Notes: generated from the letters alone by a model not told the origin. Counted from the first letter of the stretch, positions 41,303-64,000 are shown. The stretch: DNA of 64,000 bases from Comamonadaceae bacterium (GCA_011391745.1 JAABPX010000001.1:2275-66274); one strand, 5' to 3'. Made by a program: numbers and translations.

Positions 41303-41326
41303 GGGGTTCTCCTGATGAGCTGAGGG

Positions 41327-42103: not shown

Positions 42104-42129
42104 GATGAATTCCTGTGAAGGGGGGGGCC

Positions 42130-43976: not shown

Positions 43977-44002
43977 GGTATGAGCCGTAACAGAATAACA
44001 AA

Positions 44003-44032
44003 CCACCGACACCCTAGCGAAGGCATCGGTGG
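44003..44032 (-). terminator. pstS-pstC intergenic stem-loop (partial terminator or mRNA stabiliser)
   Basis: CCACCGATGCC...GGTGTCGGTGG stem followed by TTTGTTATT. Confidence 0.6.
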
Positions 44033-44068
44033 CCAAGGATCAACAAACGTTAACCCACAACTGCAGCA

Positions 44069-45103
44069 TCACTTGGTCTTGACTTGGGTCCAGACGCGTT
44101 CGCGAATTTGCTTGGTCAATGCATCGGGCAGTGGCACGTAGTCCAGGTCCAAGGCCATTTGCTTGCCATTTTTGAAGGCCCAGTCAAAGAACTTCAACAC
44201 TTCGGCGGACTCTTCTTTGTTGGCGGGGTCTTTGTACATCAAGATGAACGAAGCGGTGGTGACGGGGTAAGCGTTGTCACCGGGTTGGTTCACGATGGAC
44301 AAGCCCATGCCAGGCACGCTGAACCAGTCAGCGCCAGCCGCAGCGGCTTGGAAAGTGTCGTCGCCAGGCATAACGTACTTGCCGTTTTTGTTTTGCAAGG
44401 CCATCACAGCGATGTTGTTCTTCTTGGCGTAGGCGTATTCCACATAACCCAAAGCGCCCTTGGTGCGCGTCACGTTGGCGGCCACACCCTCGTTGCCCTT
44501 ACCGCCCACGGAGGTGGGGGCTGGCCATTTAACGGCAGCGCCTTTGCCCACGGTGTCAGCCCAGTCTTTACTCACGGTGCTCAGGTAGTCGGTCCAGTTG
44601 AAGGTGGTGCCCGAACCGTCGGCGCGGTGCACCACGGTGATCACCATGTCAGGCAATTTTTTGCCTGGGTTCAAAGCGGCCAGCTTGGGGTCGTTCCACT
44701 TGCTGATCTTGCCCATGAACATTTCGGCCAAGACGGGACCGGTCACGCGCAACTCGCCTTTACCGAAGCCATCCAAGTTGAAAATCGGCACGGTGCCGCC
44801 AATGATGGCGGGAAACTGCACCATGCCGTCCTTATCGAGATCGGCCCCGGGAACGGGAGCGTCACTGGCACCGAAAGCCACGGTTTTGGCCCGGATCTGG
44901 CGAATGCCACCGGAAGAACCGATGGATTGGTAGTTCAGGCCAGTGCCGGTGGCGGCTTTGTAGGCCTCGGCCCACTTGGCGTAGATGGGGAATGGGAAGG
45001 TCGCGCCAGCGCCGGTGATGTCGGCTGCGATGGCTTGGCCCATGCCCATGGCCACCAAACCCACAGCGGCCACGGTTTTGAAGAAATTGCGTTTGTTGTT
45101 CAT
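44069..45103 (-). CDS. pstS: Phosphate ABC transporter substrate-binding protein
   Basis: GAGATFP.PIY, YQSIGSSGG, FGASD, HRADGSGTT, GKGNEGV, YVEY.YA. Confidence 0.98.
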   Translation of the reverse strand: MNNKRNFFKTVAAVGLVAMGMGQAIAADITGAGATFPFPIYAKWAEAYKAATGTGLNYQSIGSSGGIRQIRAKTVAFGASDAPVPGADLDKDGMVQFPAIIGGTVPIFNLDGFGKGELRVTGPVLAEMFMGKISKWNDPKLAALNPGKKLPDMVITVVHRADGSGTTFNWTDYLSTVSKDWADTVGKGAAVKWPAPTSVGGKGNEGVAANVTRTKGALGYVEYAYAKKNNIAVMALQNKNGKYVMPGDDTFQAAAAGADWFSVPGMGLSIVNQPGDNAYPVTTASFILMYKDPANKEESAEVLKFFDWAFKNGKQMALDLDYVPLPDALTKQIRERVWTQVKTK

Positions 45104-45138
45104 AAGAATCCTTTCGGTGGTTGGTTTGAACAGGATTG

Positions 45139-45172
45139 AATGTATGAATCCTATGTGACAAGCGTGTGACAA
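45139..45172 (-). promoter_or_regulatory. Pho box promoter of pstSCAB-phoUBR
   Basis: TTGTCAC-acgc-TTGTCAC-atag-GATTCAT (11 nt period); TACATT lies exactly 10 nt after the second half-site. Confidence 0.85.
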
Positions 45173-45259
45173 AGTCGGTCGGGGAGCAAAAAACGCCGCT
45201 GTTTGATGCGTCACAATGCGGGCTTAGAAGAAACAAGGGGTTGATGCCCCAACACCCAT

Positions 45260-49817: not shown

Positions 49818-49851
49818 ATTATTGAACGGCCACGTGACGGTTGTGTGACAC
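49818..49851 (-). promoter_or_regulatory. Pho box promoter for ppk1-sixA embedded in the last codons of plcP
   Basis: GTGTCAC-acaa-CCGTCAC, then 10 nt, then AATAAT. Confidence 0.65.
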
Positions 49852-50679
49852 ATTGTCGGCGGTTTCAGCGCGATTTTTCACGGCTGGAACCCATTGCACG
49901 ATTTCCAAGCGCCCATCAAAGTGCTCGACCAAGGCGGTAAGGCTTTCCACCCAATCCCCGTCGTTGCAATACAAAATGCCATCGATTTCGCGCATTTCCG
50001 CACGGTGAATGTGACCACACACAACGCCTTGGTAGCCGTTCTTTCGGGCCTCTGCGGCCACCGCAACCTCAAAATCGTTGATGAAATTCATGGCTGTTTT
50101 GACCCGGTCTTTGAGGTATTGGGACAAGGACCAGTAAGGCAGCCCCAATCGCGAACGCCACGAGTTGAAGTGGCGATTGATGCGCAGGCTCAGCTCATAC
50201 AGGTTGTCGCCCAAATACGCCAACCATTTGGCGCATTGAATCACGCTGTCGAAATAGTCGCCGTGAATGACCCACAAACGTCGGCCATCGGCGGTGGTGT
50301 GCACGGCTTGGTTGCGCACCTCAACGCCGCCAAAATGCTGGCCGTCGAATTGGCGGGCAAACTCGTCGTGGTTGCCGGGCACAAACACCACGCGACAACC
50401 TTTGCGGGCCTTTTTAAGAATCTTTTGAATCACGTCGTTGTGCGCTTGTGGCCAGTGCCATTTTCTTCGCAACTGCCACCCATCGATGATGTCACCCACC
50501 AAGTACAGGTATTGGCTGGGGTGGCTTTTGAGAAAGGCCAACAGCTCTTTGGCTTGGCAACCGGCGGTGCCCAAATGCAAATCAGAAATAAACACCGCGC
50601 GGTATTTGGCTCGATCCGGACCAGACCCCGAAGTGTCGTTGTCCAAGCTGCCCATGAAGGCTTGGAAATCTGTGTACAT
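49819..50679 (-). CDS. plcP: PlcP-type Mn-dependent phospholipase C (metallophosphoesterase, often auto-annotated as LpxH-like)
   Basis: FISDLHLG, LYLVGDIIDGW, GNHD, HGD.FD, YWSLS, CGHIH, YCNDGDWVES; lipid-remodelling context. Confidence 0.82.
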   Translation of the reverse strand: MYTDFQAFMGSLDNDTSGSGPDRAKYRAVFISDLHLGTAGCQAKELLAFLKSHPSQYLYLVGDIIDGWQLRRKWHWPQAHNDVIQKILKKARKGCRVVFVPGNHDEFARQFDGQHFGGVEVRNQAVHTTADGRRLWVIHGDYFDSVIQCAKWLAYLGDNLYELSLRINRHFNSWRSRLGLPYWSLSQYLKDRVKTAMNFINDFEVAVAAEARKNGYQGVVCGHIHRAEMREIDGILYCNDGDWVESLTALVEHFDGRLEIVQWVPAVKNRAETADNVSHNRHVAVQ

Positions 50680-51506
50680 CAGGCCCCCAATAAAAATTTT
50701 CGGTAGCGTGCGGGCAAGTCGGCGGCGCGCATGAGCATGGGCAAGTCGGCGGCATTAAAGTCCGGGTCCCAGGCCGGTGGGCCCAACACCTTGGCACCCA
50801 AACGCAAATAACCCTTGATCAGCGCGGGCGGCTCCACATGCAAGGAACCATCGAGTTGCTCAATCGGCAAAGGCAAGCGTGGGCGTACATGCAAATCGAT
50901 GCTGGCCAAATGTTTGTCTTTGATTTGATGCCAAATGCTGGCCGCCGCATGGCCGCCGCCCACCATGCCCTGAGGCCCTTGGTGCTGCATGGGAATGGTG
51001 GCGCAACCGATCATGGTGTCCAAATCGTTGCGGTCCATGAAATCGAACAAAGCGCCCCACAAGGCCATGATCACGCCACCATGTCGATGTTCGGGGTGCA
51101 CACAACTGCGCCCAAGCTCAACCATGCGCTCACGCATGTGGCGCAGGCGGGTCAAGTCAAACTCGGTGTCGGTGTAGGTGCCACCCACTCGGCGGGCTTG
51201 CGCAGGGGTCAACACCCGGTAGGTGCCAACGACCTGCTGGGTGTTGGCATCGCGCACCAACAAGTGTTCACAAAAATCATCGAACAAATCAATGTCGTGC
51301 CCAGGAACTTTGCTCGACAGCTTGGCCCCCATTTCCAAGGCAAACACTTGGTAGCGCAGGCGTTGCGCTTCGCGAACTTCGTCTTGGTGTTGCGCCCAAG
51401 TTACCACGATGGACTTGGCACCCGGTGCATCGTCTTGCGGTGCATGGGGCAAAACGATTCGGGGCGCTGGCGACAGCAAGGTTGGGCTGATCGGTGGCTC
51501 TTTCAA
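50679..51506 (-). CDS. olsB: OlsB-like GNAT N-acyl amino acid synthase (ornithine-lipid type)
   Basis: EAQRLRYQVF, D.FDDFCEHLLVRD, VGTYRVL, EFDL, ELGRSCVHP, LIKGYLRLGA...PAWDPDF; AAGGAG SD with TTG start; TGATG overlap with plcP. Confidence 0.72.
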   Translation of the reverse strand: MKEPPISPTLLSPAPRIVLPHAPQDDAPGAKSIVVTWAQHQDEVREAQRLRYQVFALEMGAKLSSKVPGHDIDLFDDFCEHLLVRDANTQQVVGTYRVLTPAQARRVGGTYTDTEFDLTRLRHMRERMVELGRSCVHPEHRHGGVIMALWGALFDFMDRNDLDTMIGCATIPMQHQGPQGMVGGGHAAASIWHQIKDKHLASIDLHVRPRLPLPIEQLDGSLHVEPPALIKGYLRLGAKVLGPPAWDPDFNAADLPMLMRAADLPARYRKFLLGA

Positions 51507-51571: not shown

Positions 51572-51627
51572 ATTGTGAAAAGAGAACATGTCGAACCGAT
51601 GTCAACCGCGTGAAGAATGGATGACCA
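51572..51627 (-). promoter_or_regulatory. Four-half-site Pho box promoter for olsB-plcP
   Basis: TGGTCAT, TCTTCAC, TTGACAT, TCGACAT at an 11 nt period, then 10 nt, then CACAAT. Confidence 0.75.
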
Positions 51628-51637
51628 AACGCTCGCC

Positions 51638-52852
51638 TCATCGCACCACCTCCACCTCGGCCTGCTTGCCGCTCAACAGCGACTGCCAATGGCTCTCCAC
51701 GCGCTGTGCAATCCAAGACCATGACCATTGCGCCGCTTGCTGCTGAGCGGCGCGTCGCAGGTCGTGCTGCGCATGGGCCGTGCACACGGCGTGCCCCAAG
51801 GTGTGAACAAACGCGTTCTCGTCGCCCACGGGCACCAAGTACCCATTGCTTTGGTGTGCAATCGCCAAGGCCGCAGCCGCGTAGTCAAAAGCCACCACCA
51901 CCAAGCCACTGGCCATGGCCTCCAAGGTGACATTGCCAAAGGTTTCGGTCAAGCTGGGAAAGGCGAAGACATCGGCGCTGGCGTAAACACGCGCCAAATC
52001 CTCACCACGCAAAGCGCCCGTAAAGATCGCATCGGGCATGCGGGCCATGAACGCGGCCTTCTCTGGCCCGTCACCCACCACCACCCATTTCGCTGTGGGG
52101 TGCGTTCGGGCCAGCGCCTCGCGGGCACGAACCAACAAGCGCAGGTTTTTCTCACTCGCCAAACGACCCACAGACACGATGACCACATCGTCCTGGGCAG
52201 CACCCCATTCGGCGCGGGTGCTCGCACAGCGCTTGCTCGCTGAAAAGTGGCCGATATCCACCCCGCGCCCCACCACAAGCAAACGCTCAAAGCCCCACCC
52301 AGCCAATTCGCTTTGCATGTCCGCAGTGGGGACCATGGTGAAGTCGCAGTGGTTGTGAAAGCGCCGCAAATAAGCCAGGATGGGTTTGCGCAACCAAGGC
52401 ATTTTGTAGTGCTCGGTGTAGGCGTGGAATTGGGTTCTGAAATCGGCACTCACGGGCAACTTCAATTTCTTGGCGGCCTTGAGCGCCGACCAACCCAGCG
52501 GCCCTTCGGTGGCGATGTGAACCACGTCGGGCCTGTGTTCAGACCACAAACGCAGCAATTCACCCTGTGACGGCAAGCCCATGCGCAGGTGCGGGTACTT
52601 GGGCACAGGCCAGCCGCGCATGAGCACTTGATTCAAACCCTGGGGCTTATCCCCATCCAGCTCCACCGATTGTCGTGGTCGTATCAACTGCACCCGATGC
52701 CCACGCTGCAACAGGCTGTTGACCAAACGTTGCAAGGTCATGGCCACGCCGTTGATTTCGGGCGGATAGGTCTCGGTCACCAAGGCGATGCGCAAGGGTG
52801 ATGGCCGGTCTTCGAGCGTGTCCACGCTGATGTGCTGGTGCGGTGCATTCAT
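51638..52852 (-). CDS. GT4 glycosyltransferase, Agt-like (diacylglycerol glucosyl/glucuronosyl transferase)
   Basis: [31 protein letters not shown]...[36 protein letters not shown]. Confidence 0.8.
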
Positions 52853-52858
52853 GCCCGC

Positions 52859-52892
52859 AATATGCCCACGCTTTATCTCAATCGTGTGACAA
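52859..52892 (-). promoter_or_regulatory. Pho box promoter of the GT4 gene (leaderless geometry)
   Basis: TTGTCAC-acga-TTGAGAT, then 10 nt, CATATT, 6 nt, ATG. Confidence 0.7.
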
Positions 52893-52919
52893 AACAACCA
52901 AAACACAACACTGGCGGTT

Positions 52920-52984
52920 GTGACACACGCGTGTCATCGATTCGACAAAAAAATGATTCCCCACACGGTTCACTTTTTTGTCAT
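52920..52984 (+). promoter_or_regulatory. Pho-box-like half-sites upstream of ugd
   Basis: GTGACAC-acgc-GTGTCAT-cgat-TCGACAA and GGTTCAC-tttt-TTGTCAT (11 nt period); no clear -10 assigned. Confidence 0.5.
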
Positions 52985-52999
52985 TCACCGCCACACACC

Positions 53000-54208
53000 A
53001 TGAAAATCGCCATCGCCGGTACCGGCTACGTGGGTTTGTCCAACGCCATTTTGTTGGCCCAACACCACGAGGTCGTTGCCTTAGACATCCTGCCCTCCAA
53101 AGTCGCCACGATCAACCGCCGCGAATCCCCCATTGAAGATGCTGACATTACGGATTATTTGCGCAACCAATCGCTCAACCTCACCGCCACCACCGACCCA
53201 GTGGCGGCGTTTACCGACGCGGACTACGTCATCATCGCCACCCCCACCGACTACGATCCCCAAACCCATTACTTCAACACCCGCAGCATCGAATCGGTGG
53301 TGGCCAGCGTACTGACCATCAACCCCCGCGCGGTGATGGTCATCAAGTCCACCGTGCCGGTGGGCTACACCGCCAAACTGCGAGCGTCGCTGCAAGCCCA
53401 GCAAAGCCACCCCGTCAACATCATCTTCAGCCCCGAGTTCTTGCGCGAAGGCCGTGCCTTGCACGACAACCTCTACCCCAGCCGGATCGTCGTCGGTGAA
53501 CGCTCCGAAGCAGCACAAGTGTTTGCCCATCTGTTGCAAGAAGGAGCTATCAAACAAGACATTCCCGTGCTGTTGACCGACAGCACCGAAGCCGAGGCCA
53601 TCAAGCTCTTTGCCAACACCTATTTGGCCTTGCGTGTGGCTTATTTCAACGAACTCGACACGTACGCGGCCATGCACGGCCTGGACACCCGGCAAATCAT
53701 TGATGGCGTGTGCCTGGACCCGCGCATCGGCGCGCATTACAACAACCCGAGCTTTGGCTACGGCGGCTACTGCCTGCCCAAAGACACCAAACAACTGCTG
53801 GCCAATTACCGCGATGTGCCACAAAACCTCATCAACGCCATCGTTGAGTCCAACACCACACGCAAAGATTTCATCGCCAGCGAAATCGTCACCCGAGCCG
53901 TCATGGCGAGCGAGGCCAAGCCATCCCGCCCTGTGGTCGGTATCTACCGCCTGATCATGAAAGCGGGTTCCGACAACTTTCGTGCGTCGAGCATTCAAGG
54001 TGTGATGAAACGCATCAAGGCCAAAGGCCTTGAGGTGGTCATTTACGAACCCAATTTGGCTGAGGCCGAATTTTTTCACTCTCGCGTGGTGCGCGACCTT
54101 GAGACATTCAAGCGCATCAGCGATGTGATCGTGGCCAACCGCCGATCAGAGGCTTTGGCCGATGTGCACCAGAAGGTCTACACCCGAGACCTGTTTGGGG
54201 CCGACTGA
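53000..54208 (+). CDS. ugd: UDP-glucose 6-dehydrogenase
   Basis: [48 protein letters not shown]. Confidence 0.97.
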
Positions 54209-54214
54209 ATGCGC

Positions 54215-54254
54215 TTGTCACAAAAATAACGCTTCAATTTCACGCGAATGACAC
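54215..54254 (+). promoter_or_regulatory. Pho-box-like array upstream of the DUF962-like gene
   Basis: TTGTCAC (54215), ATAACGC (54226), ATTTCAC (54237), ATGACAC (54248) in 11 nt phase. Confidence 0.6.
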
Positions 54255-54303
54255 GCGATTGCATGACCATGTATTTTTTTTCAACCAAAGAAAGGGCTAC
54301 CCT

Positions 54304-54903
54304 GTGAGTACGTTTTGGCAACAATTGAATGAGCAGCGTTGGGACGACCACCGCTATTACCACCACAGCACCATCAACCAAAGCTTGCACCTGATCAGCG
54401 CGATCAGCTTTGTGGTCGCTTATGTCTTGGTCTGGACCGATCCCGCCATCGCCGCCTTGTTGGCTTGGCTGGTCTCGATGGTGAGTCGCCAATCCGGCCA
54501 TTTCTTTTTTGAGCCCAAGGGTTACGACGAAGTCAACCAAGCCACGCACGAGTACAAAGAAGAAATCAAGGTGGGCTACAACCTGCACCGCAAGGTGGTG
54601 TTGATGGCGATCTGGGCTTTGATCCCGGCTTGGCTGTGGGTCAACCCATCGGTCATGGGCTTGATCGAACCGTCCACCGACCTGATGGGTTTTGCGCGCG
54701 ACGTGGGCTGGGCTTGGTTTGCTTTGGGCGTGGGTGGTTTGGTGTTCCGAGTGTTGCAACTTGCGGTCCAACAAAACCTCAACACCGGTTTGGTCTGGGC
54801 CACCAAAATCCTGACCGACCCCTTCCACGACATCGCTTTGTATTACCGCTCACCCCTGCTGGTGTTGCGGGGCCAGTGGTTGGCGCCCGCCCGCGCACAC
54901 TGA
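54304..54903 (+). CDS. Uncharacterised membrane protein, DUF962/Mpo1-like His pattern
   Basis: HRYYHHSTINQSLH...RQSGHFFFEPK resembles the Mpo1 Y..H..P.N..LH and Q..GH..FE motifs; 4-5 hydrophobic segments; GTG start after AAAGGG. Confidence 0.65.
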   Translation: MSTFWQQLNEQRWDDHRYYHHSTINQSLHLISAISFVVAYVLVWTDPAIAALLAWLVSMVSRQSGHFFFEPKGYDEVNQATHEYKEEIKVGYNLHRKVVLMAIWALIPAWLWVNPSVMGLIEPSTDLMGFARDVGWAWFALGVGGLVFRVLQLAVQQNLNTGLVWATKILTDPFHDIALYYRSPLLVLRGQWLAPARAH

Positions 54904-54907
54904 GCGT

Positions 54908-56572
54908 TTAAGGCCGCCACCAGCCCAAGAGCTTGGGCCATTTGGCGGCCAACATCTCGCGCACCACCCGACGCCGCAAGGTTTTCAGGGTGGTGCCGCT
55001 GGGCAGATCCCACCAACCATCGGCCTGCATGGCCTGGGCCGCAGCCACCATGCGATCGCGCACCTGGCGCACATCGTCGTCGCTGGTGTCCAAGCTGAAC
55101 ATCATGCGACCGGATCCGACCCAACTCATGTAGAGCCCTTGCTGCCGGCAATAGAACTGGTACATCCAGTGGTAACGACCGGGCTGTGTGTAAGTGACGG
55201 TCCAGATGCTGGATAAATTTTGGATGCGCACTGGCACACCCGCGGCCTCAAAAGCTTGGTTGAAGGCCGTTCGCTCGCGGTTCCAACGCCCATCCACCCC
55301 GTCGTACAAAGCGTGTGCTTCGGGCGTGTCCAAGTAATGCAAGAACGCGTTCATGGCCCCCATCACATAGGGGTGGGCGTTGAAGGTGCCCCGGGCAAAA
55401 CACAGGTTGCCCGGTTGCTCGGGTTTGAAGCGGCGCATCCAAGCCGAGCGGCCACACACCACACCCACGGGATAACCGCCGGCCAAGGTTTTGCCGTAAC
55501 AGACCAAATCGGCCTGCACACCGAAATAGGCTTGTGCGCCCTCGCGATGGATGCGAAAGCCCACAAAAATTTCGTCCATGATGAGCGCAATGCCGCGCTC
55601 GGTGCAGACCGAGCGCAGTTTCCTCAACCATTGACCATAGGCCTCGCGGTCAAAGCCCGCGCTGCGGCTGCCGTCGACCAAGGTCGAGTCGCCGGGTGCG
55701 CCTTTGTTGGGGTGCAGTCCTTGCAGCGGGTTGACGATCACGCAGGCGATGTCGTGGCGGCTGCGCAGCACATTCAAGGTGGCCTCGTGCATGTCGCGCA
55801 AGGTATAGGTTTCGTGCACGGATGCGGGGTTGCCCGGGCCCGGCTGCACGTCGTCCCACCAGCCGTTGTAAGCCCCGGCGAATCGCACCACGTGTTGTTT
55901 GCCCGTGTGGTACCGCGCCAGGCGGACCGCTTGCATCACCGCCTCGGTGCCCGACATGTGGAAGGACACCTCGTCCATGCCCGAAATTCGCTTGAGGCGT
56001 TCCACGTTGTCAAGCACACAGGGGTGGTAAGCGCCCAATATGGGGCCCAGTGCTTCGCCCATGTCCAAACCTTTTCGCATCCAGGCTTTGTAAGCCTCAA
56101 GGCCCATGACGTTGACGCCATAAGAACCCGTGATGTCGAGGTAGGCGTGGCCATCCATATCGCGCAAATGCATGCCTTGGGATGAAGCCATGAAAGCGCC
56201 CATCGGCAGGTGTTCGCGCACCCATTCGCTGAATGGGTAAGGCACGCGGTAGCGGCTGGTGAGCTGCAAATCGGACAGGCTCTCACGCAAGCGCCGCGTG
56301 TGCTCCAAGGTGATGGGACTGCTGCGGCGAAAGTAAGCGCTCAAGCGCTCAAAACCGGCACGGCGCTGAGCAGCCAATTCGGGCGAAGCCCCATCGGCGT
56401 TAAAAAATGCGTCACCCACCAAGCTGTGGTGCGGCACCCAGCGCGCAGCCCGGCGCGACATGCGCACATGGCCGCCCAGCGAGGGGTGTTTGGCGCGAGA
56501 CAACAACCAACGGCGGTACACCGCAGGCAACAACAAGGCATCGGTCCAAGCGGGCAAATTCAAAGGGATCAT
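54908..56572 (-). CDS. Class III PLP aminotransferase (GSAM-like / PKS-NRPS AMT-domain-like) with N-terminal extension; function unknown
   Basis: G..L.DMDG..YLD...SYG, SGTEAVM.A.RLAR, F.GAYNG, IMDEIFVGFR, ADLVCYGKTLAGGYPVG (PLP Lys), GTFNAHP; 554 aa. Confidence 0.85.
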   Translation of the reverse strand: MIPLNLPAWTDALLLPAVYRRWLLSRAKHPSLGGHVRMSRRAARWVPHHSLVGDAFFNADGASPELAAQRRAGFERLSAYFRRSSPITLEHTRRLRESLSDLQLTSRYRVPYPFSEWVREHLPMGAFMASSQGMHLRDMDGHAYLDITGSYGVNVMGLEAYKAWMRKGLDMGEALGPILGAYHPCVLDNVERLKRISGMDEVSFHMSGTEAVMQAVRLARYHTGKQHVVRFAGAYNGWWDDVQPGPGNPASVHETYTLRDMHEATLNVLRSRHDIACVIVNPLQGLHPNKGAPGDSTLVDGSRSAGFDREAYGQWLRKLRSVCTERGIALIMDEIFVGFRIHREGAQAYFGVQADLVCYGKTLAGGYPVGVVCGRSAWMRRFKPEQPGNLCFARGTFNAHPYVMGAMNAFLHYLDTPEAHALYDGVDGRWNRERTAFNQAFEAAGVPVRIQNLSSIWTVTYTQPGRYHWMYQFYCRQQGLYMSWVGSGRMMFSLDTSDDDVRQVRDRMVAAAQAMQADGWWDLPSGTTLKTLRRRVVREMLAAKWPKLLGWWRP

Positions 56573-56614
56573 GTGTCATCAATCGTTCATGTGGCAATGA
56601 CAAACTTGTAACCG
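56573..56614. promoter_or_regulatory. Bidirectional Pho-box region between the aminotransferase and the psd-like gene
   Basis: Plus strand: GTGTCAT-caat-CGTTCAT, then 10 nt, then CAAACT. Minus strand: CGGTTAC-aagt-TTGTCAT, then about 9 nt, then AACGAT. The intergenic gap is only 59 nt. Confidence 0.65.
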
Positions 56615-56631
56615 TTGAATTTGACAAGACC

Positions 56632-57498
56632 ATGAAAAAACCCACTTTGCTCCAACGCTCAGGCCTCGCCGAGGACCTGAACTTTTTGTTCACCAACCGC
56701 ATTCCCCGCATTGCGCTCACACACGCCATGGGCTGGTACAGCCAAATCAAAAGTCCCTGGCTGACGCGCCTGAGCATTGCGGTTTGGGGTTGGTTCACGC
56801 CTTTGGATTTTTCTGAGGCCAAAGAACAACACTTTGACTCGTTGCACGCGTGCTTCACGCGCGAACTCAAGCCCGGCGCACGCCCTTACAGCCCCGACCC
56901 CAAGCTGATTTCTTCACCCAGCGACGGCATCGTGGGTGCCATGGGCCAGGTCCAAGATGGCGAAGTGTTCCAAACCAAAGGCTTCCCCTACACCTTGAAC
57001 GATTTGCTGGGCTCAGTGGCGCTGGCCGAGCAATACCGCCACGGTCACTACCTGACCTTGCGCCTGACCTCGGCCATGTACCACCGCTTCCACGCACCGG
57101 CACGCGTGCGTTTGGAACGGGTGAATTACATCTCGGGCGACACCTGGAACGTCAACCCCATTGCCCTACAACGCGTTGAGCGCTTGTTTTGTAAAAACGA
57201 GCGTGCCGTGCTGGATTTGGCCCTGCTCGACCACGGCGATCAGCGCATGCTCTTGGTGCCCGTGGCCGCGGTCTTGGTCGCCAGCATCCGCTTGCACGCC
57301 TTGGACACGAAATTGCACCTGCGCTACCGCGGCCCCAACGACATCCCTTGTCGGCATGAAGCGGCAGCGGGTGATGAATTGGGCTGGTTTGAGCACGGCT
57401 CGACCATCATCGTGCTGCTGCCCGAACACATCACGTGGGCCGAAGGCATTCAAACCGGTGTGCCCATCAAAGCCGGTACGCCCTTGGCAAACCTATGA
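56632..57498 (+). CDS. psd: Phosphatidylserine-decarboxylase-like pyruvoyl proenzyme (divergent subfamily)
   Basis: FTRELKPGARP, SPSDG, QTKG..Y, YHRFHAP, NVNP, LF.KNER, GWFEHGST cleavage site. Confidence 0.8.
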   Translation: MKKPTLLQRSGLAEDLNFLFTNRIPRIALTHAMGWYSQIKSPWLTRLSIAVWGWFTPLDFSEAKEQHFDSLHACFTRELKPGARPYSPDPKLISSPSDGIVGAMGQVQDGEVFQTKGFPYTLNDLLGSVALAEQYRHGHYLTLRLTSAMYHRFHAPARVRLERVNYISGDTWNVNPIALQRVERLFCKNERAVLDLALLDHGDQRMLLVPVAAVLVASIRLHALDTKLHLRYRGPNDIPCRHEAAAGDELGWFEHGSTIIVLLPEHITWAEGIQTGVPIKAGTPLANL

Positions 57499-57518: not shown

Positions 57519-58364
57519 TCACATCTTCAAAAAAGCGATGCCCACCAAGACCAGCCCCGTGGAAAAAGCGGCTGGCAACAAGCGCCCTTCTTTGAACCAC
57601 AGAATCGAAATCAGCATGGCAAACACCACAGAGGTTTCACGCAGCGCCGAGACCAAGGCCATCGGTGAGACCGTCATCGCCCACAAAACCATCGAATAGC
57701 CGGCGATCGAAATGACAGAACCCAACACAATCAAGCCCGCGTTGGTCTTGGAAAACGTCCACAGCGCCCGTGTTTGTTGCCGGTAAGCCAAGGCGTACAC
57801 CAGCATGGGCTCGAACACCGCCGACAGCAGCACATACGACAAGGCACTGCCCGAGACACGCGCCCCTGCCCCATCAACCACCGTGTACAACGCAATCACC
57901 CCCGCGTTGAGCAAAGCGAATTTGATCTGCCCCCAGCGCAAAGACCGCGCGATGTGGCGTTGGTAGGTGGACATCAAAAACAATATCCCCAAGGTCAGAA
58001 ACAACAAGCCCAACGACGAGGAACGGTCGAAGGACTCGCCCAAAAATGCCAAGGCAATCACCGTCACGAACACTGGGGCCATGCCCCGCATGACGATGTA
58101 AGCGGGGCCAAACGCGCTGTGGGCGTACACCTTGGTCAACACGAAGATGTACAGGCCGTGTAACAACACCGAGGCCAACAAATACGGGTGGCTCAGCTCA
58201 TGGGGCAAACCCACCCACCACAGCATGGGCACGGCAAGTACGGCGCTGCACAAATGCAATGCCATGGTGAAGAGGCCTTTGTCGGTGGCGCGGCTGATGA
58301 GGGAATTCCAAAGCGCGTGCATCAACGCGGCCAACAACACCGTCAGTAAAACACCATTCGTCAC
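57519..58364 (-). CDS. EamA/DMT family transporter
   Basis: AALMHALWN, AY..MRG..P, YTVVDG, VSALRETSVVFA; about 10 TM segments; GTGA overlap with the Nudix gene. Confidence 0.9.
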   Translation of the reverse strand: MTNGVLLTVLLAALMHALWNSLISRATDKGLFTMALHLCSAVLAVPMLWWVGLPHELSHPYLLASVLLHGLYIFVLTKVYAHSAFGPAYIVMRGMAPVFVTVIALAFLGESFDRSSSLGLLFLTLGILFLMSTYQRHIARSLRWGQIKFALLNAGVIALYTVVDGAGARVSGSALSYVLLSAVFEPMLVYALAYRQQTRALWTFSKTNAGLIVLGSVISIAGYSMVLWAMTVSPMALVSALRETSVVFAMLISILWFKEGRLLPAAFSTGLVLVGIAFLKM

Positions 58365-59170
58365 GCTTTCAGCACACGCAAAAACACACCCGTGGCCGCC
58401 AAGGTGAAGCGATCGGCTTCTAACGCATGGGTCAGCGCTTCCCTTTCAAATCGGTAAAACGCCGCCACCTCACCATCTTGGTTCAACGGCTCAACACCTG
58501 CCTCAAGCTCAGCCGAATAACAATGGATGGTTTCCACCGTCTGACCCCACCCCCGAGCGTCACCGCTGGGTTTGTTGAGTTCAATCGTGCCAAACGCGGT
58601 GAGGTTGACGAGTTGGCGCAGGCCCAAACCCGCCTCTTCCCATGCCTCTCGAGCCAAGGTCGCCGATGGATGTTCGTTCCAAGCCACCGTCCCGCCCACC
58701 AAGGTGTCCAAACGACCGGGGTCTTCCGCTTTGTTGGCCGCACGTTCCTGAACCCAGCACGCATCGCCTTGCCAACCGAGCACATGCACGCTGTGCGTGT
58801 GAACACCCAAGTACCGCGCCAAGTCGCGCGGTACCGCGCCGTGAAGCCGACCTTGGTCGTCCCACAAGGGCAAGCGCTCGGCCTCGGGCAGCACCCCCTG
58901 ACCAGGGTCGAACAGGTGCTGACGCAACGCGGCAAAGGTCGTGGTGGGGTCTTCGGGCAAATGCAACACATCGCCCCAATCGCTCGGCATCCATCGCCAC
59001 CCCGGTTGAAACCCCTCGCGACTCAGATGTTCAAGCATTGCGTGCGCAACCGAACCCACCACAAGGCCCCCAAGCCACAAAGGCGTTCTGGTGTCGGTTG
59101 GCGCTGGCTGGGCACGCTGCGCCCAGCGCTGCTCAAACGCAGGATCGAACGTCGGCCAGGGGGTTCGCAT
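58361..59170 (-). CDS. Nudix hydrolase (long N-terminal domain, DUF4743-like)
   Basis: Complete Nudix box G-TVAWN-E-HPSATLA-REAWEEAGL; K..DPG.LD.LVGG; P.NQDGEV. Confidence 0.85.
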   Translation of the reverse strand: MRTPWPTFDPAFEQRWAQRAQPAPTDTRTPLWLGGLVVGSVAHAMLEHLSREGFQPGWRWMPSDWGDVLHLPEDPTTTFAALRQHLFDPGQGVLPEAERLPLWDDQGRLHGAVPRDLARYLGVHTHSVHVLGWQGDACWVQERAANKAEDPGRLDTLVGGTVAWNEHPSATLAREAWEEAGLGLRQLVNLTAFGTIELNKPSGDARGWGQTVETIHCYSAELEAGVEPLNQDGEVAAFYRFEREALTHALEADRFTLAATGVFLRVLKA

Positions 59171-59179
59171 GGGTGCGAT

Positions 59180-60307
59180 TCAAGACGACATGGCCAAATC
59201 GAGCAACTCGCGTGCGAAGGCAAACGAAGTGGACGCACCGGTCCCGCCCGTGACCACGCCCAGCGCCAACCTGGGACTGGGCTGGGCTTTGAACACCACA
59301 TCCTGGGCAGAGGCGTAGCTGCCGGTCCAGCGCTCGATCACGCTGGCCTTGGGCAAATTCAAGACGCGATGAAATTCGTCCATGATGAGGTTCTCGGTGG
59401 CGGCACTGGCAAATGGGGCCTCGGCATCGCCATACACATGGCTGTCGCCCACCACCAATGAACCATCGGCGGATTGAACCACGATGAGGTGAATGCCTTG
59501 TGCCAAGTGCGCCGCTTGTTCGCCCAGCAAGCGTGCTTTGAGTGGCGTGGCTTCGGGCAAATCGGCATAACCCTCGTAACGAATCAAACTCAGGTCGGAC
59601 ATGAAGGCGCTCGACAAATGGAGCGCTTGACCGGGCGAGACACGCATCATTTGCAGGGTGCATTGGCGAATACCCGCCTGCGCCAAACACAGGGGAAAGA
59701 GCGCATTCAAATCGTTGCCTGGGCACACCACGCCGTATTCGGCGCGCAAAGAGCCGCGGCTGGTGTTGATGTGCGGCAGGTGAATGCCGGTGACGGGCGT
59801 ATTCCAATAAAAATCAACACCCAAGCTGTGTTCCAGCCATTGGCTCAAACGGGGAATGGCGTCGCGCGATTCAACCCGGCATTCGTGCGGGCTGTGCAAC
59901 AGCGCCATGCCCGGCTGCAACCAAGGCCAATCGCGCTGGGCTTGTTTGGCGTCCACCCAACGGCAACCCTCGCCCATTTCGGTGGCCATAAAAGCCTCCA
60001 GCACCGCCACCGCTTCGGGTCGCTGGGCCAGCACATGCAAGCCCTCATGAACCACCCCAATCCCTGCCTGTGGGGCCACCTCGCGCCAAATGGCCGCCGT
60101 GTCCTGCGCTCGCCGCCAGTGCTCGCCACGGCGTTGGCCGGTGACGGTGATGAATCCAAAATTGCGAACCGATGCGCCGATGGCTTTGGCGTTGCGCTCC
60201 ACCACCGCCACTCGCAAACCACGGCGGCGCGCGGTCCAGGCCGTGGCCAAGCCAATGATGCCTGCGCCCACGACCACCAGGTCGTATCCCAATTTCATGT
60301 TGCTCAT
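59180..60307 (-). CDS. FAD-dependent oxidoreductase of phosphonate clusters (TIGR03364/HpnW, PbfC-like)
   Basis: VVGAGIIGLA, GASVRNFG, RVESRDAIP, DGSLVVGDSH.YG, ERWTG.Y, GTGASTSF; directly after phnX. Confidence 0.85.
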   Translation of the reverse strand: MSNMKLGYDLVVVGAGIIGLATAWTARRRGLRVAVVERNAKAIGASVRNFGFITVTGQRRGEHWRRAQDTAAIWREVAPQAGIGVVHEGLHVLAQRPEAVAVLEAFMATEMGEGCRWVDAKQAQRDWPWLQPGMALLHSPHECRVESRDAIPRLSQWLEHSLGVDFYWNTPVTGIHLPHINTSRGSLRAEYGVVCPGNDLNALFPLCLAQAGIRQCTLQMMRVSPGQALHLSSAFMSDLSLIRYEGYADLPEATPLKARLLGEQAAHLAQGIHLIVVQSADGSLVVGDSHVYGDAEAPFASAATENLIMDEFHRVLNLPKASVIERWTGSYASAQDVVFKAQPSPRLALGVVTGGTGASTSFAFARELLDLAMSS

Positions 60308-60312
60308 GGTTT

Positions 60313-61125
60313 TTATGGGCGTTGGCCCTTGGCCAAGCGCTGTTCAATCTGGGTCAATACGGCCGGCAAATCGGCCACGGTGTCGATCACAAAATGGGCG
60401 CCGGCTGCTTGAAACACGGGGGTCACGCGCTCTCGCACGGCTTGCCGATCCGCCGCAGTGGCTTGTTCAAACTCGGCCAATGTCCACCCTGCTGGACTGC
60501 CCGATAAGCTCACACCCACGGTCCACATGCCGGCGTTTAAGCCCTCGGCAATGCCCGGCACCGTGTCGTCGACCTTCACACAATGGGCCACCGAGCCGAT
60601 GCGCAATTCTTGCACGCAAGCCAACGCCATCCACGGACCGGGCCGGGCACCAGCGGCCAAATCGTCGGCGCACACGGTGCAGTCGGGCGCGTAGCCCCGC
60701 TGCGCCGCCAGCAGCATGAGGCGCAGCATGACTTGACGCGGGTAACCGGTGGTGGAGCCAATCTTGAGGCCCTGGCGGCGCAGGGCTTGCACCAGTGCCA
60801 AAGCGCCGGGGATCAAGTCGCTGTGGGCACCCACGCGCTCGACCTGCAGCGGAATGAAGGTGTCGTAAATGTGGCGCACATCGTCTTGCGACATGGGTTG
60901 GCCAAACTGCGCCCTCCAGCGCGGACCCACATCGGGGTCTTGGCCCAAGGCCTCGATGTGCTGCCACTTGCCCAAACCCATGGGCCTGCGGGCTTCCTCT
61001 AAGCTCAGTTCAAACCCATAGGCTTGTGCAAACGCGTCCACAAAAATTTGGGTGGGGGCAAAAGAACCAAAGTCGACCATGGTGCCAGCCCAGTCGAATA
61101 CGACGGCTTCCAGTTGGGGTTTCAT
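60313..61125 (-). CDS. phnX: Phosphonoacetaldehyde hydrolase
   Basis: FDWAGTMVDFGS, R.PMG..KW.HI (Schiff-base Lys), TTGY, RP.PWM, KVDDT..GI.EG.NAG.W. Confidence 0.96.
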   Translation of the reverse strand: MKPQLEAVVFDWAGTMVDFGSFAPTQIFVDAFAQAYGFELSLEEARRPMGLGKWQHIEALGQDPDVGPRWRAQFGQPMSQDDVRHIYDTFIPLQVERVGAHSDLIPGALALVQALRRQGLKIGSTTGYPRQVMLRLMLLAAQRGYAPDCTVCADDLAAGARPGPWMALACVQELRIGSVAHCVKVDDTVPGIAEGLNAGMWTVGVSLSGSPAGWTLAEFEQATAADRQAVRERVTPVFQAAGAHFVIDTVADLPAVLTQIEQRLAKGQRP

Positions 61126-61165
61126 GGGTGTGCTCGCATTAAAAGAAACAAAAGTCGTGTGGCGC

Positions 61166-62842
61166 TCAACGAACCCGCCACGCTTGGGTGGATCGGTTCA
61201 ACCGATGGGTCAACACGCTGTGAATCAGTTTGACCGCTGCTGAAGTCACCACAATGACCACGGCCATGGCCGCCGCCGCCGCGGTGAAACCCGCTTCGTC
61301 CATGTGAATGATGGACACCGAGGCCAACTTGGTGTTTGAGCCATACAAAAAGACCACGGCCGAGACAGTGGTCATGGCGTTAACAAACAGGTAGATGCTG
61401 ATGTCGAGTACCGCCGGGGTGCACACGGGCACAGTGACCCGACCGAACATACGGCCCACCGACACCTTGAGCGAGGCCGACACCGATTCAAATTCACCGT
61501 CCAACTGCTTGAGCGCCGTGGTGGCGGTGATGTGGCTCACGGTATAGAAGTGCGCCACCGAATTGACCACCAAAATGGCCATGGTGCCGTAGATAAAACC
61601 CAAGGGATGTCCGGGTGCGTTGAAAAAGAAAATGTACGACAAGCCCAACACCAAACCCGGCACCGCCATCGACAGCATGGCCATGAGCTGTGTGGTGTTG
61701 CGCACCCACGCAAAGCCACGCGTTTTCTCCAACAGATACGCGCCCACAAACACGATGACCGTACCCGCCACCGCCGTCCAAACGGCCATGCGCAGCGAGT
61801 TGAAATACGCCCTCCAGCCCTCGCTGTCAAAGTCGGCGAATTGGTAGTTGGCCCAAGTCAAATTCAGGTTATAAGGCCACCGCGTGACCAACGAAGCCCA
61901 CACCGCCATGCCGAGCATCACCAGCATGGCTGACGCCACCAGCGCACAAAACACCCACAGCGCCCAATCGCGCGGCGCATGGGGCTGCGGCACGAGTGGG
62001 ACCGAGCGTCCGCTGAGCAAAGCCACTTGGCGGTGTTGAACCCAACGGTCTGCAGCAAACGCCAGCACGGCGGGCAACAAAAGCACAAAGCCCACCACCG
62101 CACCCATCGAGAAGTTTTGCTGACCAATCACTTGCTTGAAGATGTCGGTGGCCAACACATTAAAGCGCCCGCCAATGACCTTGGCAATGCCAAAGTCGGT
62201 GATGGCCAAGGTGAACACCACAAACCCAGCGCTGATCAAGCCGTATTTGCTGCCCGGCAGCGTCACCGTCAAAAAAGTTCGCCAAGGGGAGGCACCCAAA
62301 ACACGGGCGGCCTCGTAATGCCGGGCATCGGCCATGCTCAACGCCACCACCAAAATCATCAGCGCATGGGGAAACACATAAAACACTTGCGAAATGACAA
62401 TGCCCAACGGCCCGTAAATGGAAGCGCCCATGAGCCAGTGGTTGAGCACCCCTTGATTACCAAACAAATAAATCAAAGAGATGGCGGGCAGCAACGAAGG
62501 TGCCAAGATGGGGATCAAGGCCAGGGCTTTGAACACGGTTTTGCCGCGCATGGCGCTGCGCGTCAAAGCGTAGGCGTAGGCATAGGCCAACGGCAAGGTG
62601 ATGACCGTAATCAGGCCAGAAACCCACACACTGTTCCACAGCGAATCGAACAGCGCTGGTGTAGAAAAATACACAGCGTAATTGGCCCAACCCATCCAAT
62701 CGCCATCGGCATTCTCAAAACTCTTGATCAACAACGTGGCCAACGGCAACACCAAGGTCAACAACAGCCAAGCCGCCAGCAAAACCACGCCCAGCCGCAT
62801 CCAAGCGTCGTCCCAGTCCCAGCGATGCCGAGTGCCCGACAT
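61166..62842 (-). CDS. Putative 2-aminoethylphosphonate ABC transporter permease (fused double permease)
   Basis: PSLLPAISLIYLFGNQG, YEAARVLGAS, TDFG..KVIGG.FNVLATD, MAVPGLVLGL, EFESVSASLK; TGATG overlap with the ATPase. Confidence 0.88.
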   Translation of the reverse strand: MSGTRHRWDWDDAWMRLGVVLLAAWLLLTLVLPLATLLIKSFENADGDWMGWANYAVYFSTPALFDSLWNSVWVSGLITVITLPLAYAYAYALTRSAMRGKTVFKALALIPILAPSLLPAISLIYLFGNQGVLNHWLMGASIYGPLGIVISQVFYVFPHALMILVVALSMADARHYEAARVLGASPWRTFLTVTLPGSKYGLISAGFVVFTLAITDFGIAKVIGGRFNVLATDIFKQVIGQQNFSMGAVVGFVLLLPAVLAFAADRWVQHRQVALLSGRSVPLVPQPHAPRDWALWVFCALVASAMLVMLGMAVWASLVTRWPYNLNLTWANYQFADFDSEGWRAYFNSLRMAVWTAVAGTVIVFVGAYLLEKTRGFAWVRNTTQLMAMLSMAVPGLVLGLSYIFFFNAPGHPLGFIYGTMAILVVNSVAHFYTVSHITATTALKQLDGEFESVSASLKVSVGRMFGRVTVPVCTPAVLDISIYLFVNAMTTVSAVVFLYGSNTKLASVSIIHMDEAGFTAAAAAMAVVIVVTSAAVKLIHSVLTHRLNRSTQAWRVR

Positions 62843-63945
62843 CAAGCCACTCCAGCCGCTGGCCCGAACACGCGCAGGCGCTGCGCGGGCAAATCGATCG
62901 ACAAGGGCTGTTCTCTGTTCAAACCCATGCGCAGGGCTTGAGAGGTCAAGACATCGGCCACCAAGGTCTGTCCGTTGTGCGGGATGTGCATGCTCACGCG
63001 ACAAAATGCGCCCAAAAATTCCATGTCCTGAACCTGCGCCGCACAACGGTTATCGCCGCCCAGACTGGGTTGCGCCGAATCGTGCAACACAATGTCTTCT
63101 GGTCGAAGTGACAACGTCACCGTCCCGCCCAAAGGGGTCGTTGGCGTTTGGTCACACGACAACTCCAGACCGTGCCAATTGAAGCGTCCGGGGGCCACCC
63201 ATTGCGCTTGCAGGGGGTTGGTCTTGCCCACGAAGTCGGCCACAAACGCGCTTGTGGGTTGCTGATAAATGGCTTGAGGCGTACCCACCTGCTCAATACC
63301 ACCTTGGTTCATGACCACGATGCGGTCGGCCAAACTCAAGGCCTCTTCTTGGTCGTGCGTGACCATGATGGTGGTCACACCGAGCCGCTGGTGCAGTTGT
63401 CGCAACTCGGTGCGCAAATGCGCACGCACCCTGGCATCCAAGGCGCTCAGGGGTTCATCGAGCAACAACAAGCCCGGCGATGTGGCCAAAGCCCGGGCCA
63501 GCGCAACGCGCTGTTGCATACCGCCAGACAACTGGGCCGGATACTGGTGAGCGGATGCGGACAAACCCACCAATTCCAGCAATTCATCCACACGGGCTTG
63601 GCGGTTGTCACGGGTCCAAGCCTTGCCTTGTAAGCCATACCCCACGTTGTGCCGAACCGTTAAATTGGGGAACAAGGCATACGACTGAAACACAATGCCA
63701 AAGTCGCGCTGCGAAGGCGGCAAACCAGTGATGTCGCGCCCTTTTTGAATAATCGTCCCGCCGTCTTGCCGCTCCAAGCCTGCAATGATGCGCAGCAAAG
63801 TAGTTTTGCCGCAACCCGAGGGCCCCAAGAAACACACAAACTCACCGGGCTCAATGCTGAGCGATACATCGCGCAGCGCCCAAAAATCACCGAAACGTTT
63901 GTTGATGTGACGAACGTCCAAATACGCAGTGGCCGACAGATTCAC
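62842..63945 (-). CDS. Putative 2-aminoethylphosphonate ABC transporter ATPase (PhnT-like)
   Basis: GPSGCGKTT, VFQSYALFPN, LSGGMQQRVALAR, LDEPLSALD, HDQEEA; GTG start. Confidence 0.9.
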   Translation of the reverse strand: MNLSATAYLDVRHINKRFGDFWALRDVSLSIEPGEFVCFLGPSGCGKTTLLRIIAGLERQDGGTIIQKGRDITGLPPSQRDFGIVFQSYALFPNLTVRHNVGYGLQGKAWTRDNRQARVDELLELVGLSASAHQYPAQLSGGMQQRVALARALATSPGLLLLDEPLSALDARVRAHLRTELRQLHQRLGVTTIMVTHDQEEALSLADRIVVMNQGGIEQVGTPQAIYQQPTSAFVADFVGKTNPLQAQWVAPGRFNWHGLELSCDQTPTTPLGGTVTLSLRPEDIVLHDSAQPSLGGDNRCAAQVQDMEFLGAFCRVSMHIPHNGQTLVADVLTSQALRMGLNREQPLSIDLPAQRLRVFGPAAGVA

Positions 63946-63961
63946 GGTGCTATTCCCATAC

Positions 63962-63995
63962 AAAAAAAGGGGCGGCGCGAAGCGCCGCCTCCCCA
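63962..63995 (-). terminator. Intrinsic terminator-like hairpin upstream of the phn ATPase (after a gene ending at the window edge)
   Basis: GGCGGCGC-TTC-GCGCCGCC-CC-TTTTTTT, immediately after a TGA at 63996-63998. Confidence 0.7.
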
Positions 63996-64000
63996 TCACT

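Follow-up and report, generated by a model that had tools for sequence, protein, structure and literature searches.

A conserved, Pho-boxed trio of DUF962-like, aminotransferase and Psd-like genes in a Comamonadaceae bacterium: a probable PhoB-controlled membrane-lipid module

Three adjacent genes in a 26-kb Pho island of a Comamonadaceae bacterium (phoR-phoB-phoU-pstBACS, ppx, ppk1, plcP, olsB, the glycosyltransferase gene GT4, ugd and, beyond the trio, phnX) raise the question of what they make together and whether it is a lipid. The window analysed is the whole stretch of 64,000 nucleotides (nt) that contains the island, and all positions are counted in it. The first gene (54304-54903, + strand, GTG start) encodes a DUF962/Mpo1-like membrane protein of 199 amino acids (aa) with about four transmembrane segments, the second (54908-56572, - strand) a class-III, pyridoxal phosphate (PLP)-dependent aminotransferase (AT) of 554 aa resembling AMT domains, and the third (56632-57498, + strand, ATG start) a Psd-like pyruvoyl decarboxylase proenzyme of 288 aa, the strands alternating across the trio. 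An earlier note on this DNA had put these genes forward as a candidate pathway to a phosphorus-free amino-lipid. The results described here show that the trio is a real functional unit, moved between bacterial classes, and very probably it is a membrane-lipid module under PhoB control. The chemistry that we favour, with a probability of roughly 0.4, is a PhoB-induced oxidation, transamination and decarboxylation of a lipid head group that would yield a surrogate resembling phosphatidylethanolamine (PE), N-methylated in alphaproteobacteria.

The evidence for a unit comes from a scan of one genome per species with aligned Psd-like proteins as the query, which matched at least 599 stretches, at least 596 of them confirmed relatives; the locus counts given here rest on the best 80 of these at least 596 relatives (57-67% identity). 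In 73 of the 74 loci with sufficient flanking sequence, AT and Psd-like genes are divergent neighbours; the DUF962-like gene comes next in order in 65 of 66, and in 62 of 64 a GT4 is found no more than 6 kb away from the Psd-like gene. The order GT4 (-), protein of about 200 aa (+), AT (-), Psd-like (+) was identical in the six neighbourhoods inspected, where the outer flanks differ, and GT4, which is of the Agt type, belongs to the conserved block in betaproteobacteria. AT homologues occur in Malikia, Macromonas, Variovorax, Hydrogenophaga and Tepidicella; identity is 59-66% along the whole protein, N-terminal extension included. Outside the Burkholderiales the block was found in eight Bradyrhizobium species, in alpha- and gammaproteobacterial metagenome-assembled genomes (MAGs), in Dechloromonas and Rhodocyclaceae, and on a Sphingomonas parapaucimobilis replicon, so that its carriers range from Limnohabitans, Hydrogenophaga, Rhodoferax and Rubrivivax, dominant lineages of freshwater, to soil Bradyrhizobium and Sphingomonas. 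The divergent loci are flanked by genes unrelated to the module (pilT, proC, a sigma factor, a sulfatase), and a shared block amid unrelated flanking genes indicates that the block travels as a self-contained unit. The co-location that the earlier note called for was therefore found in essentially every genome examined, distant classes included, and the neighbourhood search that it proposed brought out the trio with GT4 as a common block, with plcP within 10 kb of the module in 22 of 43 full loci. One departure from the order was seen in a Rubrivivax MAG (locus L054, 2026-3680), where ugd is inserted between the AT and Psd-like genes, and a 3-kb contig of a Planctomycetota-labelled MAG (L074) carries a Psd-like gene with no AT in the 2.1 kb upstream.

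All three genes were present as first called, but two of the start codons, those of the DUF962-like and Psd-like genes, had to be corrected. For the DUF962-like gene, GTG 54304 is most likely the start rather than TTG 54259, because an AAGGG Shine-Dalgarno sequence stands 8 nt upstream and the resulting N-terminus, MSTFWQQL, fits homologues of 200-205 aa. The Psd-like gene begins at ATG 56632, and the open reading frame (ORF) start at 56407 was discarded. No recognisable Shine-Dalgarno sequence precedes this ATG (window 56620-56631); a TTGACA or TGACA, which is the Pho half-site of the opposite promoter, stands 4-9 nt before it and is kept from beta- to alphaproteobacteria. The window sequence is present in metagenome runs only, and contigs of one metatranscriptome cover the DUF962-like gene as well as the AT gene at its 3' end.

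Regulation by PhoB was examined with a weight matrix trained on the orthologous loci only, the window being excluded, so that the pstS promoter serves as an independent control. This promoter holds the reference site, a perfect TGTCAC-N5-TGTCAC at 45155-45171 between pstS and ppx, and its Pho box (45153-45173, TGTCACACGCTTGTCAC, with a second pair in phase) ranks first in the window with a score of 22.1; the best score in shuffled windows averages about 14. The second rank is held by the box of the Psd-like gene (56572-56592, + strand, TGTGTCATCAATCGTTCATGT, score 16.9), in which CATGTCATCnnnCTTTCAA is kept across orthologous loci and which overlaps the AT start codon, and the third by the box of the AT gene (56619-56639, - strand, TTTTTCATGGTCTTGTCAAAT, score 16.1), which overlaps the Psd-like start codon; a weaker box for AT is found at 56595-56615 (- strand, score 9.1). 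The 59-nt spacer between AT and Psd-like genes consequently consists of two back-to-back promoters, each with its Pho box over the partner's start codon. Before the DUF962-like gene, four 7-nt half-sites in 11-nt phase (TTGTCAC, ATAACGC, ATTTCAC and ATGACAC; 54215-54256, + strand) form a Pho-like box, of which the part at 54236-54256 has a score of 11.6, by itself not significant.

A simple motif search would not have carried this point, since TGTCAY-N5-TGTCAY with up to two mismatches occurs 19 times in the whole window against 15 +/- 4 expected by chance, which is no excess, and the boxes of the earlier note are each such two-mismatch sites. The orthologous loci provide the stronger argument. 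Repeats number 99 in 78 distinct spacers between the Psd-like and AT genes (2.0 in shuffles) and 148 in 52 spacers between the DUF962-like gene and GT4 (1.7 expected), every one of these 52 containing a box; their density is 10-11 per kb in the spacers as compared with 0.07 per kb in AT coding DNA, and across orthologous loci they are enriched about 50-fold in the intergenic regions of the module. In Bradyrhizobium the box that spans the Psd start codon reaches 17-19.7, the best or second-best value in whole 20-kb loci, and in Sphingomonas the scores are 15.3 for the box over the Psd start and 16.9 before the methyltransferase-DUF962 operon described below. The sites thus have the features of Pho regulon promoters, 7-nt direct repeats in 11-nt phase that replace the -35 box. 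As for the boxes originally proposed, half-sites in 11-nt phase stand where they had been placed and the AT/Psd pair ranks second and third, whereas the one ahead of the DUF962-like gene is weak by itself; boxes of the PhoB type at the module promoters proved to be conserved across orthologous loci, alphaproteobacteria included.

The Psd-like protein is the member of the trio that can be read most directly. It matches Pfam PS_Dcarbxylase (PF02666) with an E value of 1e-49 and passes the cut-off of the NCBI PS_decarb model (137 against 112 bits), and this pass of a generic phosphatidylserine (PS)-decarboxylase model is the only one at equivalog level within the trio. The alignment to the PS decarboxylase (PSD) of Escherichia coli (7cnw; E = 1e-30) runs from the N-terminal region onward, a region which we take to be the membrane-binding part. 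D98, H151, H154 and G256-S257-T258 are invariant in 10 orthologues; the first three align to D90, H144 and H147 of the E. coli enzyme, and GST is the self-cleaving, pyruvoyl-forming motif. The roles of the corresponding residues in E. coli PSD, an Asp-His-Ser triad and a His that contacts the carboxylate, have been described (PMC7952604). At the positions of the E. coli phosphate ligands Tyr137 and Ser166 the Psd-like protein has Arg144 and Asn173, Arg144 being invariant, and an Arg replaces Tyr137 in 15% of PSDs (PMC7952604). Since the full catalytic set is kept, the Psd-like enzyme needs a free alpha-amino acid, and to judge from these residues it is likely a competent pyruvoyl decarboxylase whose substrate would carry an anionic group next to the amino acid.

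It is also set apart from the housekeeping enzyme. Module proteins are 50-67% identical across alpha- and betaproteobacteria (50% for the Sphingomonas module copy), whereas canonical PSDs of the E. coli type, encoded on large replicons of Novosphingobium, Ralstonia, Cupriavidus and enterobacteria, are 28-34% identical to the Psd-like protein. This gap in identity makes the module Psd-like proteins a clade separate from canonical PSDs, and the earlier note had named an identity with canonical housekeeping Psd as a refutation. No AT stands beside the canonical PSD gene in either of the two neighbourhoods inspected (Novosphingobium and Ralstonia). A different accessory psd of the E. coli type, 29% identical, was noticed on the Ralstonia solanacearum megaplasmid (locus L090, 2532-6840), in a string with genes for a NAD(P)-binding protein, an alcohol dehydrogenase and a transporter of the major facilitator superfamily (MFS); Psd paralogues in non-housekeeping contexts may be commoner in Burkholderiales than assumed.

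The aminotransferase belongs to Pfam Aminotran_3 (PF00202; E = 6e-32, 111 bits against a cut-off of 30.5), and its PLP lysine is K361 in YGKTL, which aligns with the lysine motif of MycA. Its N-terminal extension, conserved and about 120 aa long, begins with a hydrophobic helix, after which comes an invariant LSRAKH.SL.GH. Automatic annotation labels the AT a glutamate-1-semialdehyde aminomutase, as it labels the Psd-like protein a phosphatidylserine decarboxylase. An identity with this aminomutase, HemL, was rejected, the AT scoring 158 bits where TIGR00713 demands 527 and 171 where NF000818 demands 398, and the earlier view of an AMT-like enzyme distinct from HemL holds, with MycA AMT as the best match. 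By sequence and by predicted fold the nearest structure is the AMT domain of MycA (6kfm; E = 1e-46, TM-score 0.82), and the next relatives are HemL, beta-transaminases, D-phenylglycine aminotransferase and sugar C-6' aminotransferases, so that the AT has its closest relatives among aminating enzymes whose substrates are lipidic or sugar carbonyls and 2-oxo acids. The MycA domain aminates a carbonyl on a fatty-acyl substrate. MycA and the AT differ in that the MycA domain is part of a polyketide synthase/nonribosomal peptide synthetase (PKS/NRPS) and acts on a beta-ketoacyl substrate bound to acyl carrier protein (ACP), whereas the AT is free-standing and has its own N-terminal extension. Indeed, no ACP, ketosynthase (KS) or adenylation gene was found in about 90 neighbourhoods, and the AT does not qualify as a PKS/NRPS AMT domain.

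The DUF962-like protein is the least familiar of the three. Its assignment to the Mpo1-like family, proposed in the earlier note, stands in so far as the match covers the YHH..N..LH and GH..FE region, but the score is below the Pfam threshold. Orthologues reach 17-22 bits against PF06127, and a few homologues in databases are tagged with this family. Homologues are 65-73% identical and share the invariant motifs WDDHRYYHHS, GHFFFEP and TDPFHD, with six invariant His and several invariant Asp or Glu. These His and Asp/Glu residues are consistent with a metal site, and the protein can be regarded as a putative metal-dependent lipid oxygenase. The AlphaFold model has a high confidence (pLDDT 83), and the search against solved structures returned no match by fold (every E > 1) or by sequence. 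The family is small and closed, a profile search having found 793 mostly fragmentary matches among 1.84 billion representatives. The sole characterised DUF962 protein, yeast Mpo1, is a Fe2+-dependent dioxygenase of 2-hydroxy fatty acids (PMC10398889). Both proteins are small and polytopic in the membrane, and the motif region of Mpo1 is matched; the sub-cut-off score, an extra C-terminal half with TDPFHD and the small closed family distinguish the present protein.

A partner gene in alphaproteobacteria adds a clue to the product. In Bradyrhizobium and Sphingomonas a methyltransferase of 217-229 aa is encoded immediately upstream of the DUF962-like gene, its best family being the phospholipid N-methyltransferase PmtA (158 and 136 bits, the next family about 75), and in Sphingomonas the two genes overlap by 4 nt (L089 10900-12173), which points to translational coupling. 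Betaproteobacterial loci lack the PmtA-like gene, which occurs in the alphaproteobacterial versions only. Many alphaproteobacteria typically contain phosphatidylcholine (PC), which betaproteobacteria rarely have, and a PmtA-like gene confined to alphaproteobacterial modules is what would be expected if the product replaces PE in betaproteobacteria and methylated PE or PC in alphaproteobacteria. The partner fits an amine end product, PE- or PC-like. PmtA-like and DUF962-like sequences form a single ORF in two database entries (P0375 and P0490), which are candidate fusions.

Taken together, these observations lead us to hypothesize the following pathway. Under phosphate starvation each gene would fire from its own Pho-box promoter, alongside lipid renovation by PlcP and Agt. 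The Mpo1-like protein would act on a lipid whose head group is a 2-hydroxy acid (or alcohol) and oxidise that group to the 2-oxo acid, the membrane-associated AT would convert the latter to a lipid-bound alpha-amino acid resembling PS, the Psd-like enzyme would remove the carboxyl to leave an ethanolamine-like primary amine, and in alphaproteobacteria the PmtA-like enzyme would N-methylate this amine. The chain would be R-CH(OH)-COOH to R-CO-COOH to R-CH(NH2)-COOH to R-CH2-NH2, in other words serine biosynthesis and then the Psd and PmtA steps performed on a lipid, and its product would stand in for PE in betaproteobacteria and for PC or methyl-PE in alphaproteobacteria. This order of steps is suggested because the decarboxylase needs an alpha-amino acid, the AT makes one from a 2-oxo acid and Mpo1 attacks 2-hydroxy acids with O2. 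A location at the membrane is supported by hydropathy, namely the transmembrane segments of the DUF962-like protein and the hydrophobic N-terminus of the AT, and by the LplT-type lipid flippase encoded beside GT4 in 28 loci. The product would probably be phosphorus-free, and a candidate anchor is the diacylglycerol released by PlcP, reached by way of the GT4 glycolipid with UDP-glucuronate supplied by ugd. That the trio defines a new class of phosphorus-free lipids, a series running from PS-like to PE-like (and to PC-like) in which a non-phosphate anionic linker replaces the phosphate, is less likely, though its chance is substantial; the linker could be, for example, a carboxylate from the oxidatively remodelled sugar of an Agt glycolipid, and the pathway would then be a main phosphorus-sparing way of abundant freshwater Burkholderiales. 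Of the amino-lipid pathway as first suggested, the conserved unit, the boxes, the catalytic residues and the amine-fitting PmtA-like partner bear out the outline; the product and the step order, together with the substrate, the absence of phosphorus and the role of GT4, we infer from sequence.

Several observations weigh against this pathway. The nearest relatives of the AT mostly aminate ketones or aldehydes, and a decarboxylase would then be needless. The Pfam Mpo1-like match (PF06127) of the first protein has an E value of 4e-4 and 20.9 bits against a cut-off of 24, and the profile search of 1.84 billion representatives gave no bridge to the wider DUF962 family. At a phosphate-ligand position the Psd-like protein retains a suitable residue, Arg144, which is compatible with a genuine phospholipid substrate. 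Besides GT4 the module contains no transferase that would attach an acid head group to diacylglycerol, a route from a pyranosidic glucuronide to an alpha-hydroxy acid is not obvious, and GT4 itself is absent beside the Sphingomonas module and missing or distant in two other loci. PhoB control is predicted from boxes in the DNA, and a full-text search of the literature yielded no paper describing the trio or its lipid product.

The module might instead handle genuine phospholipids, the Psd-like enzyme being a true PS decarboxylase inducible by phosphate starvation, a reading that we consider unlikely. In one variant the oxygenase and the AT would convert one phospholipid head group into another, for example by oxidising the glycerol of phosphatidylglycerol (PG) down to an aldehyde that is aminated to give PE; in the other they would deaminate and break down the head groups of PE or PS for the recovery of phosphate. 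All PSD catalytic residues, the Arg at the phosphate-ligand position and the pass of PS_decarb (137 against 112 bits) speak for it, as do the resemblance of the alphaproteobacterial partner to PmtA, the frequency of an LplT transporter and plcP among the neighbours and the Sphingomonas trio that goes without GT4. However, making PE or PC from a PhoB promoter contradicts phosphorus economy, PlcP already frees diacylglycerol from PE, and GT4 is linked in 62 of 64 loci; furthermore, Bradyrhizobium and carriers among the Burkholderiales presumably also have canonical PssA and Psd.

More improbable is a division of the trio into two jobs, in which the oxygenase and the AT turn the Agt glycolipid into a cationic or zwitterionic aminoglycolipid, by oxidising a hydroxyl of its sugar and then transaminating it, while the Psd-like enzyme only boosts the flux from PS to PE. 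Class-III sugar C-6' aminotransferases are indeed among the relatives of the AT, and GT4 and ugd are tightly linked to the module, but this would leave unexplained the near-obligate back-to-back arrangement of AT and Psd-like genes with their interlocked Pho boxes, the PmtA-like partner and the Sphingomonas locus that lacks GT4.

There is little likelihood that the trio scavenges soluble phosphorus compounds, with the Psd-like enzyme decarboxylating phosphonoalanine or phosphoserine and the AT then processing 2-aminoethylphosphonate or phosphoethanolamine, thereby feeding PhnX or releasing phosphate. In the window a phnX operon without phnW adjoins the trio, both being part of the Pho island, and the substrates resemble the head group of PS. 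Nevertheless, only 2 of 88 loci have phosphonate genes in the vicinity of the module, which rules out a phosphonate link as a general feature, and deamination is probably taken care of already by an HpnW-like oxidoreductase. In the Psd-like protein the presumed membrane-binding part, aligned with the beginning of E. coli PSD, is retained, the DUF962-like protein has transmembrane segments and the AT a hydrophobic N-terminus, and a search of solved structures did not place the AT close to known phospho-lyases. Finally, unrelated housekeeping genes (HemL and Psd) kept together by descent beside chance repeats, as the automatic annotations and a window-wide motif count no higher than chance might suggest, can practically be dismissed, given an AT far below the HemL cut-offs, a block common to several classes with varying flanks, boxes enriched 50-fold at conserved positions, and canonical PSDs only about 30% identical and located elsewhere.

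The favoured pathway of oxidation, transamination and decarboxylation can be set beside the systems already known. Phospholipid replacement is among the main bacterial answers to phosphorus scarcity and follows few known routes: Agt glycolipids, ornithine lipids, diacylglyceryl-trimethylhomoserine (DGTS) and sulfoquinovosyldiacylglycerol (SQDG). In the PlcP-Agt system of SAR11, Agrobacterium and Pseudomonas, a PhoB-induced phospholipase C and a GT4 enzyme produce glucosyl- or glucuronosyl-diacylglycerol. The present locus shares with it the Pho boxes, the GT4-plcP string, ugd alongside for UDP-glucuronate and the setting in a Pho island; the linkage of GT4 to plcP under Pho boxes makes it a probable member of this renovation system, and the GT4/plcP/ugd/olsB part is ordinary for lipid renovation under phosphorus stress. 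Unlike in the known system, which is not known to include them, oxygenase-like protein, AT and decarboxylase are here encoded by the most tightly linked genes. The PssA-Psd-PmtA route from PS to PE to PC has in common with the module the complete Psd catalytic set and, in alphaproteobacterial versions, the PmtA-like methyltransferase, but the module has a Psd of a separate clade, about 30% identical to canonical ones, with Pho boxes, paired with AT (73 of 74 loci) and DUF962-like protein (65 of 66) and with no PssA alongside. BtaA and BtaB make DGTS, a phosphorus-free lipid whose amino-acid head group is N-methylated and mimics PC under phosphate starvation. The resemblance to this system is one of pathway logic only; there is no homology and no S-adenosylmethionine (SAM)-dependent aminocarboxypropyl transferase, and the present module has a decarboxylation step. 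In the Ugd-ArnA-ArnB aminoarabinose pathway, UDP-glucose dehydrogenase together with steps of oxidation, decarboxylation and transamination leads to an amine that alters the charge of the envelope, and these ingredients of chemistry are the same here. The enzymes are not homologous, however, and pyranosidic glucuronate cannot supply an alpha-amino acid for pyruvoyl chemistry; an Arn-like conversion of glucuronate to aminopentose on the glycolipid was ruled out on mechanism, because a pyruvoyl decarboxylase needs an alpha-amino acid.

If the favoured pathway is true, it would bring a new lipid class and a non-PS substrate for an enzyme of the Psd family, and a free-standing lipid aminotransferase of the AMT type, and an Mpo1-like protein would have a role in bacteria for the first time; a new set of marker genes for phosphorus stress in metagenomes would come with it. 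Should genuine phospholipids be the substrates instead, an unexpected PhoB-controlled conversion of head groups would come to light.

The surroundings of the trio in the window agree largely with their first description, with ugd, GT4, olsB and plcP on one side and a phosphonate operon on the other, except that the operon is of the phosphonatase and not of the C-P lyase type, as its gene set of phnX and 2-aminoethylphosphonate transporter shows. This operon (57519-64000, 3' of the trio; phnX, PhnT2/PhnU2 and EamA 'phn_DUF6') runs in the order EamA 'phn_DUF6', a NUDIX-domain gene (58361-59170), an HpnW-like FAD oxidoreductase (59180-60307), phnX and a 2-aminoethylphosphonate ABC transporter; it has no phnW (window 57519-64000), and deamination is probably carried out by the HpnW-like oxidoreductase. 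The window and Bradyrhizobium both have NUDIX genes close to the module, but these are unrelated to each other.

On the other side, the island opens with a complete phoR-phoB-phoU-pstB-pstA-pstC-pstS string (38569-45214, - strand), followed past pstS by ppx, a SixA-like gene, ppk1, plcP, olsB, GT4, ugd and the trio. A GT4-olsB-plcP string on the - strand is headed by the Agt-type glycosyltransferase (51638-52852), which matches lipid glycosyltransferase families of Pfam and NCBIfam; it continues with the olsB-like N-acyltransferase (50679-51506, TTG 51506 start with an AAGGAG site) and the plcP-like metallophosphoesterase (49819-50679), both recognised by Pfam and NCBIfam. The ugd gene, encoding UDP-glucose 6-dehydrogenase (53000-54208, + strand; NCBIfam 650 bits), is inserted between GT4 and the DUF962-like gene. 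Pho boxes recur in this part as well: several with scores of 8-12.9 occupy both strands of the divergent promoter region of GT4 and ugd (52873-52986), one (51608-51628, score 14.3) follows the GT4 stop codon ahead of the olsB start and suggests an internal promoter for olsB-plcP, and the ppk1 box (49832-49852, score 15.3) lies inside the 3' end of plcP. In other loci, ugd adjoins the module in many cases, and PPK2, olsB and ppk1 recur among the neighbours. In 28 loci (L001, L006, L016, L018 and L019 among them) GT4 has beside it an LplT-type lysophospholipid transporter of the MFS, which at 449 bits exceeds the NCBI cut-off; in Limnohabitans (L006) ugd and then lplT form a pair, and this transporter may flip the new lipid or import lysolipids.

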